From IMG/VR virus record IMGVR_UViG_2541047698_000005: a stretch of DNA of 9,773 nt, one strand, 5' to 3'. A program made the position numbers and the translations under genes. This DNA comes from a virus. Lineage: Duplodnaviria; Heunggongvirae; Uroviricota; Caudoviricetes. The first letter of the stretch is position 1; each line of letters begins with the position of its first letter. Under the pieces are notes generated by a model. That model was not told the origin of the DNA and did no database searches. It saw only the letters and a program-made list of their open reading frames with translations. Below are positions 1 through 9,773 of this stretch, in pieces.

Positions 1-113
1 GGATGATGTCGCTGTTGCTGACAGTGGTAATACGTTGACGGGGCAATATGCAGTTCGCTGCATAGCGGTCCGACCCCGTACTGCTCACGCAGCTTATCCA
101 GCAGTGGCATCAT
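1..113 (-). CDS. IS3-family transposase OrfB (DDE catalytic subunit), N-terminal fragment truncated by the window edge
   Basis: Hand translation of the minus strand in the -1 frame relative to orfA gives [37 protein letters not shown]..., which I recognise as a typical IS3-family OrfB N-terminus. It overlaps the orfA stop at the A6 slippery site. Confidence 0.7.
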
Positions 114-436
114 TTTTTCCAGAGGCGGTCGAACTCCGCCTTCGCAAAATAAGCGGAAGCCTGGCGAAGGATATCGTTACTGCGGCGCAGTTCACGATTT
201 TCACGTTCCAGCTCTTTCAGACGCTGACGTTCAGCGGTGGTGAGCCCTCCATCACCGCCCCCGGTATCCCGCTCATGCTGGCGAACCCAGACACGCAGAG
301 TCTCCGGCGTACAGCCAATCTTTGGAGCAATGGAACAAATTGTCGCCCATTGTGAGTCATATTCGCTCTGACTTTCCAGAACCATACGGACTGCCCGTTG
401 ACGGACTTCGGGGGAAAAACGAGTATTTTTAGTCAT
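110..436 (-). CDS. IS3-family transposase OrfA (HTH DNA-binding subunit), 108 aa
   Basis: The ORF track protein [22 protein letters not shown]...[36 protein letters not shown] has a helix-turn-helix followed by a leucine-zipper-like segment, typical of IS3-family OrfA. It ends at an A6 slippery run (plus-strand T-run 113..118) where the -1 frameshift into orfB occurs in this family. Confidence 0.88.
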
Positions 437-490
437 CCTGTTTACCTCTTTCTCAGGAAGTTTAGTCTCCAGGATTCCCGGGGCGGTTCA

Positions 491-682
491 GGACTTCAGC
501 ATCGCAACAGCTTAAGTGCGCAGCTCAACATGAAATGTCATGAGTTTGACCAGAAGAAAGACATGGCGAGCTTCTGCGGACAAGGGCTGGCAGCATGGCG
601 CTATACGAAGCCAGTGTTGGTCGCTGAGATTAACTCCCTGGCTAACCAGCTGCAGATTACGATCCCCGGGCTTCCGGGATGA
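491..682 (+). pseudogene. 3' portion of an uncharacterised gene immediately abutting the IS terminus (likely IS-disrupted); alternatively an intact 50-aa ORF starting at ATG 531
   Basis: The frame is open from the IS boundary at 490 to the stop at 680..682 (…GLQHRNSLSAQLNMKCHEFDQKKDMASFCGQGLAAWRYTKPVLVAEINSLANQLQITIPGLPG). Its stop overlaps the start of the next ORF in an ATGA motif. The 5' part of ORF-track entry 398..682 lies inside the IS and is not part of the gene. Confidence 0.4.
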
Positions 683-936
683 GTGATCGTGTTATTGAAT
701 GCGCCTCCAGAGCGGGGCGCGACTTCTCAGAGTTCATGAAAGGCGAGAAGGGCATGATGGAAGCATTGGCCTCGGTGGATGAGTTTGGCGAGCAGCTGCG
801 CCTCAACGGCTGTGTCAATCATCACTTTGTTAGCTACATGATGCGGAACTCGATCATGCAGGCATTCATGGACATGGCAAAAGCCGAGAGGAAAGAAGAG
901 CGCCGGCGTAAGCGAGCGGAAGCAAAAGCGAAGTAG
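679..936 (+). CDS. Hypothetical protein, 85 aa, with a strongly basic Lys/Arg/Glu-rich C-terminal tail
   Basis: ORF MSDRVIECASRAGRDFSEFMKGEKGMMEALASVDEFGEQLRLNGCVNHHFVSYMMRNSIMQAFMDMAKAERKEERRRKRAEAKAK. The start overlaps the stop of the upstream frame (ATGA at 679..682), suggesting translational coupling. An alternative internal start is the ATGATG at M26/M27, preceded by a GAGAAGGG Shine-Dalgarno-like motif. No family recognised. Confidence 0.5.
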   Translation: MSDRVIECASRAGRDFSEFMKGEKGMMEALASVDEFGEQLRLNGCVNHHFVSYMMRNSIMQAFMDMAKAERKEERRRKRAEAKAK

Positions 937-1222
937 CCATTACAAAGCCTATCTACGGGTGGGCTTGATAATGGCTTATACCCTACACGGGATAACTTAA
1001 CTGATATCCCTTTTAAAGGATAAAGGTATTCAAGCCTGACACATCATGCGCTGTATCGTCGCCGTGTTCCCGTATTAACAGAGACCGTAGCCCGACGGGG
1101 AACTCCTTCTGCGCGAGTGTGCGGGAATAATCAAAAACGATGCACACCGGGGTTACCGGGTACACATATTTCATCATGCCAGCGAGTCCGGTTCTGGCAC
1201 GGAAGAAACCGGACGTTATGAT

Positions 1223-1633
1223 TTAGTGCGGAAATATTTGTGTAGTGTTCTGAATGTTCTCAGTAAAGAGTAATGAATTATCAAAGGTATAGTAATACCT
1301 TTTGTTTTCGTGGATATTTGTAATCCATCTGAAAACCCCTGCTGTAGCAAGATTTTTCCTGTATTCGTAAAATGATAACTCTCCTGATTTGAATCCTTTT
1401 AAGGTGGCTTCTATAAGGCATTTATTTTTTGAAAATCTTACATTTACAACCTTACCCTGTCCTTTTATTAAAACCGTATTATCGTTTTCAAGAACAAGAT
1501 GAATATTCTCTGTGGCTAAATAGTAAATGTAATGTGAGACATTGTGACGTTTTAGTTCAGAATAAAACCAGTGATAGTTTAAATTATTTCGCACTTTATC
1601 GAATATTTGTTTAAAAATGGCAACCTGAGCCAT
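1223..1633 (-). CDS. Prophage accessory protein, YbcV/YdfO-like (DUF1398-type, assignment from memory), 136 aa; strongly AT-rich gene
   Basis: Long minus-strand ORF in a visibly AT-rich block that contrasts with the GC-rich head genes. The preferred start is the second Met (ATG at 1633..1631 on the minus strand), which is preceded by GGAAGGT at 6-nt spacing; the first Met (1648) has no Shine-Dalgarno motif. The size (136 aa) and the position next to a ylcI-like gene near cos match the ybcV/ydfO arrangement I recall from E. coli K-12 DLP12 and Qin prophages. Confidence 0.7.
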
Positions 1634-1690
1634 TGTAGTACCTTCCATGTGATATGAGGGGGCGTAGTCTGCACGATTATCTAGATTGCT

Positions 1691-1924
1691 TCAATCTGGT
1701 CTAACCTGTTTTCTGAGCAATTCAGTAATGTCACTCTTTTCTTTGTTTGCTTCAGGCGAAACTCTTTTTTCTGAGCACAGTCTCCGGCGGCAGGCTTCAA
1801 TGACCCAGGCTGAGAAATTCCCGGACCCTTTTTGAACAAGAGCGATGTTAATTTGTTCAATCATTTGGTTAGGAAAGCGGATGTTGCGGGTTGTTGTTCT
1901 GCGGGTTCTGTTCTTCGTTGACAT
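1691..1924 (-). CDS. YlcI/YnfO-family small protein (DUF3950-like) with a predicted ribbon-helix-helix DNA-binding fold, 77 aa
   Basis: ORF MSTKNRTRRTTTRNIRFPNQMIEQINIALVQKGSGNFSAWVIEACRRRL... The pattern of a basic N-terminal arm, a short beta-strand (RNIRF), helix (NQMIEQINIAL), Gly-rich turn (GSGNFS) and second helix (AWVIEACRRRL) fits a CopG/Arc-type RHH. It sits immediately upstream of cos/Nu1, as ylcI does upstream of nohD in DLP12 (from memory). It is co-directional with the DUF1398-like gene, 43 bp away. Confidence 0.7.
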   Translation of the reverse strand: MSTKNRTRRTTTRNIRFPNQMIEQINIALVQKGSGNFSAWVIEACRRRLCSEKRVSPEANKEKSDITELLRKQVRPD

Positions 1925-2059
1925 GAGGTTGCCCTGTATTCAGTGTCGCTGATTTGTATTGTCTGAAGTTGTTTTTACGTTAAGTTGATGCAGATCAATT
2001 AATACGATACCTGCGTCATAATTGATTATTTGACGTGGTTTGATGGCGTAGATGCACGT

Positions 2060-2300
2060 TGTGACATGTAGATGATAATTATTATCATTTTTCGGGTCCT
2101 TTCCGGCGATCCGACAGGTTACGGGGCGGCGACCTCGCGGGTTTTCGCTATTTATGAAAATTTTCCGGTTTAAGGCGTTTCCGTTCTTCTTCGTCGTAAC
2201 TTAATGTTTTTATTTAAAATACCCCCTGAAAAGAAAGGAAACGACAGGTGCTGAAAACGAACTTTTGGGCCTCTGTCGTTTCCTTTCTCTGTTTTGGGCC
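2060..2300. other. cos: Lambda-type cohesive end site (cos) with cosQ, cosN and cosB contiguous (joined ends)
   Basis: The sequence ...TCCGACAGGTTACG|GGGCGGCGACCTCGCGGGTTTTCGCTATTTATGAAAATTTTCCGG... matches the joined right and left ends of phage lambda as I recall them. The 12-nt cohesive-end sequence GGGCGGCGACCT is at 2124..2135. The cosQ region is the AT-rich GATGATAATTATTATCATTT segment around 2071..2090. Confidence 0.9.
2170..2290 (+). promoter_or_regulatory. cosB: cosB: terminase small-subunit binding elements R3, R2, R1 with an intervening AT-rich IHF site (I1)
   Basis: There are three copies of the CGTTTCC core: GGCGTTTCCGTTC (about 2173..2186, R3), GGAAACGACAGG (about 2237..2248, R2, inverted) and CTGTCGTTTCCTTTC (about 2273..2287, R1). 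R3 and R2 are separated by the AT-rich run TAACTTAATGTTTTTATTTAAAAT. This matches lambda cosB architecture. Confidence 0.8.
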
Positions 2301-2312
2301 GTGGAATGAACA

Positions 2313-2832
2313 ATGGAAGTCAACAAAAAGCAGCTGGCTGACATTTTCGGTGCGAGTATCCGTACCATTCAGAACTGGCAGGAACAGGGAATGCCCGTTC
2401 TGCGAGGCGGTGGCAAGGGTAATGAGGTGCTTTATGACTCTGCCGCCGTTATAAAATGGTATGCCGAAAGGGATGCTGAAATTGAGAACGAAAAGCTGCG
2501 CCGGGAGGTTGAAGAACTGCTGCAGGCCAGCGAGACAGATCTCCAGCCAGGGACTATTGAGTACGAACGCCATCGACTTACGCGTGCGCAGGCCGATGCA
2601 CAGGAGCTGAAAAATGCCAGAGACTCCGCTGAAGTGGTGGAAACCGCATTCTGTACTTTCGTGCTGTCGCGTATCGCAGGTGAAATTGCCAGTATTCTCG
2701 ACGGGATCCCCCTGTCGGTGCAGCGGCGTTTTCCGGAACTGGAAAACCGACATGTTGATTTCCTGAAACGGGATATCATCAAAGCCATGAACAAAGCAGC
2801 CGCGCTGGATGAACTGATACCGGGGTTGCTGA

Positions 2833-2858
<26 letters not shown>
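2313..2858 (+). CDS. nu1: Terminase small subunit gpNu1 (winged-HTH cosB-binding protein), 181 aa
   Basis: The ORF MEVNKKQLADIFGASIRTIQNWQEQGMPVLRGGGKGNEVLYDSAAVIKWYAE... is essentially the lambda Nu1 sequence as I recall it. It lies directly downstream of cosB and overlaps the start of A. Confidence 0.95.
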
Positions 2859-6539
<3,681 letters not shown>

Positions 6540-6559
<20 letters not shown>

Positions 6560-7859
6560 TCTCCCGCATATTACCAGTATGGCCTTTAATGAGCCGCTGT
6601 TGCTTGAACCCGCCTATGCGCGGGTTTTCTTTTGTGCGCTTGCAGGCCAGCTTGGGATCAGCCGCCTGACGGATGCGGTATCCGGCGACAGCCTGACTGC
6701 CGGAGAGGCACCCGCGGCGCTGGCGTTATCCGTTGATGATGACGGACCACGGCAGGCCCGCAGTTATCAGGTCATGAACGGCATCGCCGTGCTGCCGGTG
6801 TCCGGCACGCTGGTCAGTCGGACGCGAGCGCTGCAGCCGTATTCGGGGATGACCGGTTACAACGGCATTATCGCCCGTCTGCAACAGGCTGCCAGCGACC
6901 CGATGGTGGACGGCATTCTGCTCGATATGGATACGCCAGGCGGGATGGTGGCAGGGGCATTTGACTGCGCTGACATCATCGCCCGTGTGCGTGACATAAA
7001 GCCGGTATGGGCGCTGGCCAATGACATGAACTGCAGCGCAGGTCAGCTGCTTGCCAGTGCCGCCTCCCGGCGTCTGGTCACGCAGACCGCCCGGACAGGC
7101 TCCATCGGCGTCATGATGGCTCACAGTAATTACGGTGCTGCGCTGGAGAAACAGGGCGTGGAAATCACGCTGATTTACAGCGGCAGCCATAAGGTGGATG
7201 GCAACCCCTACAGCCATCTACCGGATGATGTCCGGGAAACACTGCAGTCCCGGATGGATGCAACCCGCCGGATGTTTGCACAGAAGGTGTCGGCATATAC
7301 CGGCCTGTCCGTGCAGGCTGTGCTGGATACCGAGGCTGCAGTGTACAGCGGTCAGGAGGCCATTGATGCCGGACTGGCTGATGAACTTGTTAACAGTACC
7401 GATGCGATCACCATCATGCGTGATGCACTGGATGCACGTAAATCCCGTCTCTCAGGAGGGCGAATGACCAAAGAGACTCAATCAACAACTGTTTCAGCCA
7501 CTGCTTCGCAGGCTGACGTTACTGGCGTGGTGCAAGCGACGGAGGGCGAGAACGCCAGCGCTGCGCAGCCGGACGTGAACGCGCAGATCACCGCAGCTGT
7601 TGCGGCAGAAAACAGTCGCATTATGGGGATCCTCAACTGTGAGGAGGCTCACGGACGCGAAGAACAGGCACGCGTGCTGGCCGAAACCCCCGGTATGACC
7701 GTGGAAACGGCCCGCCGCATTCTGGCAGTTGCACCACAGAGTGCACAGGCGCGCAGTGACACTGCGCTGGATCGTCTGATGCAGGGGGCACCGGCACCGC
7801 TGGCTGCAGGTAACCCGGCATCTGATGCCGTTAACGATTTGCTGAACACACCAGTGTAA
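6540..7859 (+). CDS. C: Prohead protease/scaffold gpC (S49/ClpP-like serine peptidase), 439 aa, GTG start inside the 3' end of B
   Basis: The ORF track gives a 484-aa frame from 6405, but the N-terminus MTAELRNLPHITSMAFNEPLLLEPAYARVFF begins at the GTG at 6540..6542, giving 439 aa, the lambda C length. The peptidase region contains GIAVLPVSGTL...DTPGGMV. Confidence 0.9.
7254..7859 (+). CDS. nu3: Scaffolding protein gpNu3, in-frame internal start within C, 201 aa
   Basis: An ATG at 7254..7256 is in frame with C, 714 nt after the C start, exactly as for lambda Nu3 nested in C. It reads MDATRRMFAQKV... Confidence 0.8.
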   Translation: MDATRRMFAQKVSAYTGLSVQAVLDTEAAVYSGQEAIDAGLADELVNSTDAITIMRDALDARKSRLSGGRMTKETQSTTVSATASQADVTGVVQATEGENASAAQPDVNAQITAAVAAENSRIMGILNCEEAHGREEQARVLAETPGMTVETARRILAVAPQSAQARSDTALDRLMQGAPAPLAAGNPASDAVNDLLNTPV

Positions 7860-7868
7860 GGGATGTTT

Positions 7869-8201
7869 ATGACGAGCAAAGAAACCTTTACCCATTACCA
7901 GCCGCTGGGCAACAGTGACCCGGCACATACGGCAACCGCGCCCGGCGGATTGAGTGCGAAAGCGCCTGCAATGACCCCGCTGATGCTGGATACCTCCACC
8001 CGTAAGCTGGTTGCGTGGGATGGCACCACCGACGGTGCTGCCGTTGGCATTCTGGCGGTTGATGCTGACCAGACCAGCACCACGCTGACGTTCTACAAGT
8101 CCGGCACGTTCCGTTATGAGGATGTGCTCTGGCCGGAGGCTGCCAGCGACGAGACGAAGAAACGGACCGCGTTTGCCGGAACGGCAATCAGCATCGTTTA
8201 A
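7869..8201 (+). CDS. D: Head decoration protein gpD, 110 aa
   Basis: [43 protein letters not shown]...[11 protein letters not shown] matches lambda D. The ORF track starts two codons earlier (7863), but the lambda-type start is the ATG at 7869. Confidence 0.93.
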
Positions 8202-8221
8202 CCTTACCCTTCATCACTAAA

Positions 8222-8244
8222 GGCCGCCTGTGCGGCTTTTTTTA
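8222..8244 (+). terminator. Terminator-like GC hairpin plus T-tract in the D-E intergenic region (probable attenuator or RNA-stability element inside the late operon)
   Basis: GGCCGC-CTGT-GCGGC at 8222..8236 (5-6 bp GC stem, 4-nt loop) is followed immediately by TTTTTTT at 8237..8243. Confidence 0.5.
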
Positions 8245-8255
8245 CGGGATTTTTT

Positions 8256-9281
8256 ATGTCGATGTACACAACCGCCCAGCTGCTGGCGGCAAATGAGAAG
8301 AAATTTAAGTTTGATCCGCTGTTTCTGCGTCTCTTTTTCCGTGAGAGCTATCCCTTCACCACGGAGAAAGTCTATCTCTCACAAATTCCGGGACTGGTAA
8401 ACATGGCGCTGTACGTTTCGCCGATTGTTTCCGGTGAGGTTATCCGCTCCCGTGGCGGCTCCACCTCTGAATTTACACCGGGATATGTCAAGCCGAAGCA
8501 TGAGGTGAATCCGCAGATGACCCTGCGTCGCCTGCCGGATGAAGATCCGCAGAATCTGGCGGACCCGGCTTACCGCCGCCGTCGCATCATCATGCAGAAC
8601 ATGCGAGACGAAGAGCTGGCCATTGCTCAGGTCGAAGAGATGCAGGCCGTTTCTGCCGTGCTTAAGGGCAAATACACCATGACCGGTGAAGCCTTCGATC
8701 CGGTTGAAGTGGATATGGGCCGCAGTGCGGCGAACAACATCACACAGTCCGGTGGTACGGAGTGGAGCAAGCGTGACAAGTCCACGTATGACCCGACCGA
8801 CGATATCGAAGCCTATGCGCTGAACGCCAGCGGCGTGGTGAATATCATCGTGTTTGATCCGAAAGGCAGGGCGCTGTTCCGTTCCTTCAAAGCCGTCAAG
8901 GAGAAGCTGGATACCCGTCGCGGCTCTAATTCCGAGCTGGAGACAGCGGTAAAAGACCTGGGCGAAGCGGTGTCCTATAAGGGGATGTATGGCGATACGG
9001 CGATCGTCGTGTATTCCGGACAGTACGTGGAAAACGACGTCAAAAAGAACTTCCTTCCGGACAACACGATGGTGCTGGGGAACACTCAGGCACGCGGTCT
9101 GCGCACCTATGGCTGCATTCAGGATGCGGACGCACAGCGCGAAGGTATTAACGCTTCTGCCCGCTACCCGAAAAACTGGGTGACCACCGGCGATCCGGCG
9201 CGTGAGTTCACCATGATTCAGTCAGCACCGCTGATGCTGCTGGCTGACCCTGATGCGTTCGTGTCCGTACAACTGGCGTAA
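8256..9281 (+). CDS. E: Major capsid protein gpE, 341 aa
   Basis: A 341-aa ORF, MSMYTTAQLLAANEKKFKFDPLFLRLFFRESYPFTTEKVYLSQIPGLVNMALYVSPIVSGEV..., with lambda E size and sequence (from memory). Confidence 0.95.
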   Translation: MSMYTTAQLLAANEKKFKFDPLFLRLFFRESYPFTTEKVYLSQIPGLVNMALYVSPIVSGEVIRSRGGSTSEFTPGYVKPKHEVNPQMTLRRLPDEDPQNLADPAYRRRRIIMQNMRDEELAIAQVEEMQAVSAVLKGKYTMTGEAFDPVEVDMGRSAANNITQSGGTEWSKRDKSTYDPTDDIEAYALNASGVVNIIVFDPKGRALFRSFKAVKEKLDTRRGSNSELETAVKDLGEAVSYKGMYGDTAIVVYSGQYVENDVKKNFLPDNTMVLGNTQARGLRTYGCIQDADAQREGINASARYPKNWVTTGDPAREFTMIQSAPLMLLADPDAFVSVQLA

Positions 9282-9283
9282 TC

Positions 9284-9310
9284 ATGGCCCTTCGGGGCCA
9301 TTTTCTCTTT
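9284..9310 (+). terminator. Terminator-like hairpin with TTCG tetraloop and T-rich tail directly after the E stop codon
   Basis: ATGGCCC-TTCG-GGGCCAT at 9284..9301 (7-bp stem, UUCG-type loop) is followed by TTTCTCTTT. It lies between the E stop (9279..9281) and the FI Shine-Dalgarno motif GGAGGAG. Confidence 0.5.
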
Positions 9311-9322
9311 GTGGAGGAGTCC

Positions 9323-9718
9323 ATGACGAAAGATGAACTGATTGCCCGTCTTCAGGTGCTGGGTGAGCAACTGAACCGTGATGTCAGCCTGACGGGGACG
9401 AAAGAAGAACTGGTGCTCCGTGTGGCAGAGCTGGAAGAGGAGCTTGATGACACGGATGACGCTGCCGGTCAGGACACATCTGTCAGCCCGGAAAATGCGC
9501 TGACCGGACATGAAAATGAGGTTGTATCAGCGCAGCCGGATACCGTGACTGATACGGCTGATCTGGTCACGGTTGTGGCACTGGTGACGCTGCATACTGA
9601 TGCACTTCACGCCACGCGGGATGAGGCTGTGGCATTTGTGCTGCCGGGAACGGCGTTCCGTGTCTCTGCCGGTGTGGCAGCTGAAATGACAGAACGTGGC
9701 CTGGCCAGAATGCAATAA
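9323..9718 (+). CDS. FI: DNA-packaging / head assembly protein gpFI, 131 aa
   Basis: MTKDELIARLQVLGEQLNRDVSLTGTKEELVLRVAELEEELDDTDDAAGQD... matches lambda FI. The start is the ATG at 9323, preceded by GGAGGAG; the ORF-track frame extends 13 codons further upstream without a Shine-Dalgarno motif. Confidence 0.9.
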   Translation: MTKDELIARLQVLGEQLNRDVSLTGTKEELVLRVAELEEELDDTDDAAGQDTSVSPENALTGHENEVVSAQPDTVTDTADLVTVVALVTLHTDALHATRDEAVAFVLPGTAFRVSAGVAAEMTERGLARMQ

Positions 9719-9729
9719 CGGGAGGCGCT

Positions 9730-9773
9730 GTGGCTGATTTCGATAACCTGTTCGATGCTGCCATTGCCCGCGC
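9730..9773 (+). CDS. FII: Head-tail connector protein gpFII, N-terminal fragment truncated by the window end
   Basis: A GTG at 9730 is followed by ADFDNLFDAAIAR, matching the lambda FII N-terminus (MADFDNLFDAAIARA), and is preceded by GGGAGG. Confidence 0.75.
   Translation, partial: MADFDNLFDAAIAR

Follow-up and report, generated by a model that had tools for sequence, protein, structure and literature searches.

A predicted IS629 insertion in a KilA-N/ORF11CD3 gene of a lambda-like prophage accessory segment

The left end of an IS3-family element

The DNA analysed here, referred to as the window, is a stretch of 9,773 nucleotides. It is identical to positions 1746-11518 of scaffold KE699051.1 (assembly GCA_000456365.1; locus L028), and its major capsid allele is rare, being found on 31 contigs. 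The first 490 bp contain the following features, all on the minus strand.

1-490, minus strand: the 490 bp at the IRL end of an IS629-group (IS3 family) element, 100% identical to copies L006, L003 and L004 from three other E. coli genomes
466-490, minus strand: left inverted repeat (IRL), TGAACCGCCCCGGGAATCCTGGAGA, the same as the right inverted repeat (IRR, positions 767-791 of L028) at 23 of 25 positions
110-436, minus strand: orfA, 108 aa plus stop, encoding an HTH_Tnp_1 DNA-binding protein (by translation; Pfam PF01527, E = 7e-13)
113-118, minus strand: A6 slippery run for programmed -1 frameshifting (by direct reading), with the orfA stop TGA directly after it at 112-110
3-113, minus strand: codons 1-37 of orfB in the -1 frame, cut by a scaffold gap (by translation; same N-terminus as OrfB in L006)
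39-155, minus strand: region of the ALIL (apical loop-internal loop) pseudoknot that stimulates frameshifting (Rfam RF01497)

Read on the minus strand, positions 490 to 466 give TGAACCGCCCCGGGAATCCTGGAGA, so position 490 is the exact tip of the element, with an end of the TG...CA type. Both terminal inverted repeats, IRL and IRR, begin with TGAACC and have the TG...CA form that characterizes the IS3 family. The orfA gene starts with an ATG at 436, just 3' of an AGAGG ribosome-binding motif, and stops with a TGA at 112-110. Its 3' end reads CTC TGG AAA AAA TGA, and one base back, in the -1 frame, orfB starts with ATG ATG CCA and stays open to the window edge. The element therefore has the two consecutive reading frames, orfA and a -1-frame orfB joined at a slippery A-run, by which IS3-family members are recognized. 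The original prediction had proposed a TG...CA terminus at 490, with OrfA and a frameshift-coupled N-terminus of OrfB on the minus strand. Both proposals are borne out by the IRL reading at 490-466 and by the arrangement of orfA (436-110) and the -1-frame orfB; the A6 site that it suggested mapping lies at 118-113.

In the IS3 family, for which IS911, IS2, IS3 and IS150 are the paradigms, a single mRNA yields both OrfA and the frameshift fusion OrfAB. OrfAB, which combines an HTH with a DDE domain, produces first a figure-eight and then a circle by copy-out, and the circle integrates by paste-in with a short staggered cut. The element studied here has in common with these four OrfA, an OrfAB predicted to be made by -1 frameshifting on an A-run, an rve/DDE domain as seen in the full-length copy that matches over the 490 bp, a short target overlap, though with unlike copies, and presumably copy-out/paste-in through a circle. 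It differs from IS911 in its frameshift stimulator, which is a simple stem-loop in IS911 and an ALIL pseudoknot here. The match to Rfam RF01497 runs from 155 to 39 on the minus strand and covers the full model (1-117) with 120.2 bits (gathering score 50, E = 2e-32). IS3411 is the element on which this pseudoknot family was defined, and at least 27 other IS elements have it (PMC5009743). Judged by sequence, window 1-490 is the left end of an IS629-group element of the IS3 family, and the match is far above chance.

Comparison with other IS629-type copies

As references for identity we used IS copies in sequenced genomes and plasmids, including copies labelled by PGAP, and compared them over the 490 bp. 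In the complete-E. coli collection, the 490 bp gave 6181 record matches. The copies compared were:

L006, full-length 1310-bp copy from strain FY26 with an annotated programmed frameshift: 100% over 490 bp
L004, partial copy, PGAP label "IS629 family": 100% over 490 bp
L003, partial copy, PGAP label "IS3411 family": 100% over 490 bp
L034, Shigella sonnei plasmid copy: 99.2% over 490 bp
L005, O157:H7 DEC4E copy, PGAP label "IS1203 family": 96.7% over 490 bp, 16 mismatches
L035, O55:H7 copy: 96.3% over 490 bp

Against these genome and plasmid copies, nucleotide identity is at or above the 95% used to define an IS629 isoform. In the full-length copy that is identical over the 490 bp, the -1 fusion yields a 404-aa OrfAB with HTH_Tnp_1, HTH_21 and rve domains (rve, E = 2e-27; NCBIfam IS3 transposase NF033516, 365 bits). 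The original prediction of an IS629-like, IS3-family element thus agrees with the identities found, which reach 100% for copies that PGAP labels IS629 or IS3411.

The three names refer to closely related elements: IS1203 and IS3411 are isoforms of IS629 according to Rump et al. (PMC3271280). Partial copies that are 100% identical to the 490 bp, like L003 and L004, are labelled IS3411 or IS629 depending on the genome, and it was on IS3411 that the ALIL pseudoknot was defined. IS629 itself, with its Shigella sonnei prototype, shares with the window element the inverted repeat sequence, the TG...CA ends, orfA and orfB in the 0 and -1 frames, and a 3-bp duplication, imperfect in the window. The S. 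sonnei plasmid copy differs from the window by 4 substitutions in the 490 bp, and it is 99.4% identical over 1310 bp to the matching full-length copy. The IS1203-labelled O157:H7 DEC4E copy reaches only 96.7%, so the window element is not the O157-type variant. By these alignments, the S. sonnei plasmid copy is nearer to the sequence type of the window element than is the O157 copy compared.

The presence of the element had also been taken as a pointer to an enterohaemorrhagic E. coli (EHEC) or Shigella host. This does not hold. The IS match is carried by 3780 of 5426 complete E. coli genomes (70%), with a median of 3 places per genome, and it is present on 3174 plasmids, some of them from Salmonella and Klebsiella. 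Identical copies come from avian, human and plasmid backgrounds; the O157 copy compared diverges by 3.3%, and the O55:H7 copy is no closer. The best matches to the flanks come from human blood and other isolates without an EHEC label, and the assembly series of the source is presumably a Danish bacteraemia and urinary tract infection collection. IS629 alone should not serve to call an EHEC or Shigella background.

The interrupted gene

To the right of the IS tip, the window carries three features on the plus strand.

491-493, plus strand: IRL-side copy of a 3-bp target duplication, GGA; the target and the IRR-side copy (L028 764-766) read GAA
491-682, plus strand: 3' remnant of a KilA-N/ORF11CD3 gene, 63 codons, with the ORF11CD3 domain (Pfam PF10549, E = 3e-14)
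679-936, plus strand: 85-aa gene of unknown function; its start normally overlaps the stop of the KilA-N gene (ATGA), but the IS has separated it from this upstream partner

In IS-free genomes the target is a 165-aa (498-bp) gene annotated "KilA-N domain-containing protein". IS-free matches to the window from 490 or 493 onward occur in more than 100 complete genomes and in phage PhiR49_1, and from 493 onward the window is identical to intact 165-aa genes. The empty site reads TTC ACC GGA GAA CTT CAG. In the source, the left junction reads ACC GGA GAA followed by TGAACC, and the right junction reads GGTTCA followed by GGA CTT CAG. Of the 165 codons, 103 thus precede the element, which separates the KilA-N domain (residues 9-101) from the ORF11CD3 domain (residues 109-161); the TGA at the end of the element is the stop codon of a 103-aa ORF that holds KilA-N only. 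The orientation of the element is opposite to that of the KilA-N gene and of the lysis and packaging genes nearby. These alignments document both junctions, the empty site and the separation of the two domains, as well as the identity and the anatomy of the inserted element.

The exact right junction was not found in complete E. coli genomes, GTDB representative genomes or IMG/VR, and in these three collections the insertion is private to the source lineage. The same KilA-N gene was also broken independently by a 1-bp deletion in a decayed prophage of another E. coli (AP026503.1; L018 7657-8153), and the gene is lost repeatedly. The 85-aa protein has no match in Pfam or NCBIfam. Its gene, normally joined to the KilA-N gene by the ATGA overlap at the KilA-N stop, has probably lost translational coupling to it. 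An Rfam match to snoRNA GlsR20 at window 604-698 was rejected as noise (22.8 bits versus a gathering score of 100).

The scaffold gap and the far end of the element

The start of the window directly follows a run of 920 Ns (L028 826-1745), and its end coincides with the scaffold end. The window begins inside the IS because assembly stopped at the repeat, leaving this scaffold gap. Left of the gap, L028 767-825 starts with TGAACCGCCCCGGGTTTCCTGGAGAG, and these 59 bp are identical to the reverse-complemented right end of the full copy. The first 25 of them (767-791) are the IRR, the other inverted repeat that the original prediction had expected upstream. Counted through the gap, the IS spans a nominal 1469 bp, of which 920 are estimated Ns, compared with 1310 bp for IS629 and about 1.2-1.55 kb for members of the IS3 family.

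The middle of the source copy, including the DDE region of orfB, falls within the gap. Could the gap hide a truncated, interrupted or composite element instead of an intact single IS629? A 1310-bp IS needs only 761 bp between its 59-bp and 490-bp ends, whereas the gap holds 920 Ns, an excess of 159 bp, and IS629 copies are commonly found cut short by other elements (L003, L004 and L007 are examples). Scaffold gap lengths are estimates, however, and the two ends are inverted, each identical to the full copy, and flank contiguous target with a 3-bp overlap, an arrangement that marks a simple insertion. We consider a non-intact element unlikely and infer that the source copy is probably full length and potentially active.

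An imperfect target-site duplication

Relative to the empty site, the two flanks overlap by exactly 3 bp. The target-site duplication that had been anticipated is therefore present as an overlap, but its two copies are not the same: the IRR-side copy reads GAA, the IRL-side copy GGA. All 10 intact alleles that were fetched read GAA, and in the best 12 of 493 matching records the alignment begins only at window 493. The published data on IS629 give a duplication of 3-4 bp of target, with identical copies at only 21 of 47 sites (PMC3271280). Among 34 distinct full-length IS629-type copies in the loci that we fetched, the duplication was perfect in 13, had one mismatch in 5, two mismatches in 13 and three in 3.

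A junction produced by IS-mediated rearrangement or by a scaffolding error, rather than by simple insertion, is an alternative. The duplication at the window site is imperfect, and 21 of the 34 distinct copies have no perfect one; those that could be tested had no empty site, which places them, probably, at rearrangement joints. In every intact allele, on the other hand, the two flanks of the window insertion sit side by side, with an overlap of exactly 3 bp. Among the empty-site relatives, L024 (GCA_045174585.1) is closest, at 99.925% identity over 9284 bp (window 490-9773, 7 differences); the left flank shows 0 differences from it over 700 bp, and the next difference in the right flank after 492 is at 1935. 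A rearranged or misassembled junction is thus highly improbable, and simple insertion is the reading that we retain.

Position 492 (G for A) is one of the 7 differences from L024. With so few differences, the probability of one landing by chance in the 3 duplicated bases is roughly 0.002, and because of this we suspect from the comparison that the base change has to do with transposition rather than drift. The altered IRL-side duplicate base is the sole unexplained detail of the insertion. One doubtful explanation is that the change is a scar of transposition chemistry. Carry-over of a donor-flank base, by way of the 3-bp spacer at the junction of the IS circle, might have given the G at 492. 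Alternatively, the 3 nucleotides outside IRL, at which the donor is nicked during IS3-family strand transfer, might have undergone error-prone resynthesis. A literature search found nothing relevant on donor-flank carry-over in the IS3 family. If such carry-over were general, imperfect duplications could record the donor sites of individual IS3-family jumps; as it stands, the imperfect duplication is a small curiosity for studies of the IS3-family mechanism.

The one-mismatch copies in our survey are probably rearrangement joints and have no bearing on the anomaly at 492. For L005, L044, L045 and L092, no empty site was present among the fetched loci; one was also absent from complete E. coli genomes for L005 and from IMG/VR for L044 and L045. 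For L074, an exact-match check within the fetched loci gave no empty site. In a separate case, an IMG/VR prophage contig (L149) carries an IS629-type copy without a duplication, and the same flanks lie about 14 bp further apart in the IS-free loci L071, L110 and L113. This spacing indicates a small deletion adjacent to the insertion.

Proposed course of the insertion and its consequences for expression

Overall, we propose, with a probability of about 0.93, that a single IS629 copy inserted into the KilA-N/ORF11CD3 gene in the accessory segment of a lambda-like prophage, in the opposite orientation. The element would have arrived by the copy-out/paste-in route of the IS3 family, with the A6 slippery site and the ALIL pseudoknot directing synthesis of the OrfAB transposase by -1 frameshifting. 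Insertion would have duplicated 3 bp of target. The break, past codon 103, separates the two domains of the gene and puts 1.3 kb of antisense IS DNA ahead of the ORF11CD3 remnant and the 85-aa gene. As a textbook case of IS629 entering an accessory gene of a prophage, the event is already known in kind, and the result has little weight beyond annotation. It explains the small ORF beside the IS, which is the tail of the broken KilA-N/ORF11CD3 gene, and the start of the window inside an IS, which reflects a repeat-induced scaffold gap.

The consequences for expression follow from the arrangement of the genes and are put forward conditionally. The prophage genes to the right of the IS would be transcribed only by read-through across the element. 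Since the phage genes are on the plus strand and the transposase gene is on the minus strand, such transcripts would be antisense to the latter.

The original prediction had instead raised outward transcription from the IS end as a possible driver of the adjacent ORFs. Some IS3-family members do activate neighbouring genes, and a 94-codon ORF (398-682) begins within the IS and continues in frame into the gene remnant. This ORF has no support as a gene and was not in the protein collection searched. A simple consensus scan, which may miss weak or non-sigma-70 promoters, found no sigma-70-like site on the plus strand of window 1-700, and the same kind of scan found none on either strand of the full-length IS copy. 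The geometry is also unfavourable. In the IS3-family members that have been studied, the outward -35 element lies in IRR, whereas the end that adjoins the phage ORFs here is IRL and the IRR faces the other way. Finally, the first adjacent ORF is the 3' remnant of a gene destroyed by the IS and not as cargo awaiting a promoter. An outward promoter supplied by the IS end is therefore very unlikely, and the claim is not upheld; read-through remains our expectation for the genes right of the insertion.

The accessory segment around the insertion

The insertion site lies between the lysis genes (Rz) and cos/Nu1 of the lambda-like prophage, about 1.6 kb upstream of cosN, and the packaging and head genes downstream of the IS are untouched. 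Window positions 2124-2135 hold the lambda-type cosN, GGGCGGCGACCT, which precedes the start of Nu1 (2313) by 189 bp. The interval from the lysis genes to Nu1 is variable, in line with the earlier assignment of the element to a prophage accessory region. It had further been suggested that this region undergoes IS-mediated remodelling where cargo genes sit; one simple insertion is what we find, and nothing beyond it.

The KilA-N/ORF11CD3 gene and the overlapping 85-aa gene form a cassette right after Rz (window 491-936; loci L008-L017). The pair occurs in lambdoid phages with at least 5 different packaging and head modules, including Stx phages. Among phages that share the head genes of the window, the same slot holds bor, a TonB_C protein, cold-shock genes or GnsAB instead. 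Between the cassette and cos, at window 1013-1924, lie three small minus-strand genes, flanked by phage genes on the plus strand: a 54-aa ORF, a DUF1398 gene (YbcV-like, 136 aa) and a YnfO/DUF3950 gene (77 aa). A second lambda-like prophage in the same assembly (KE699062.1; L029) is 98.8% identical to window 1185-9773, from DUF1398 to FI, which is the probable reason for the scaffold end at window position 9773.
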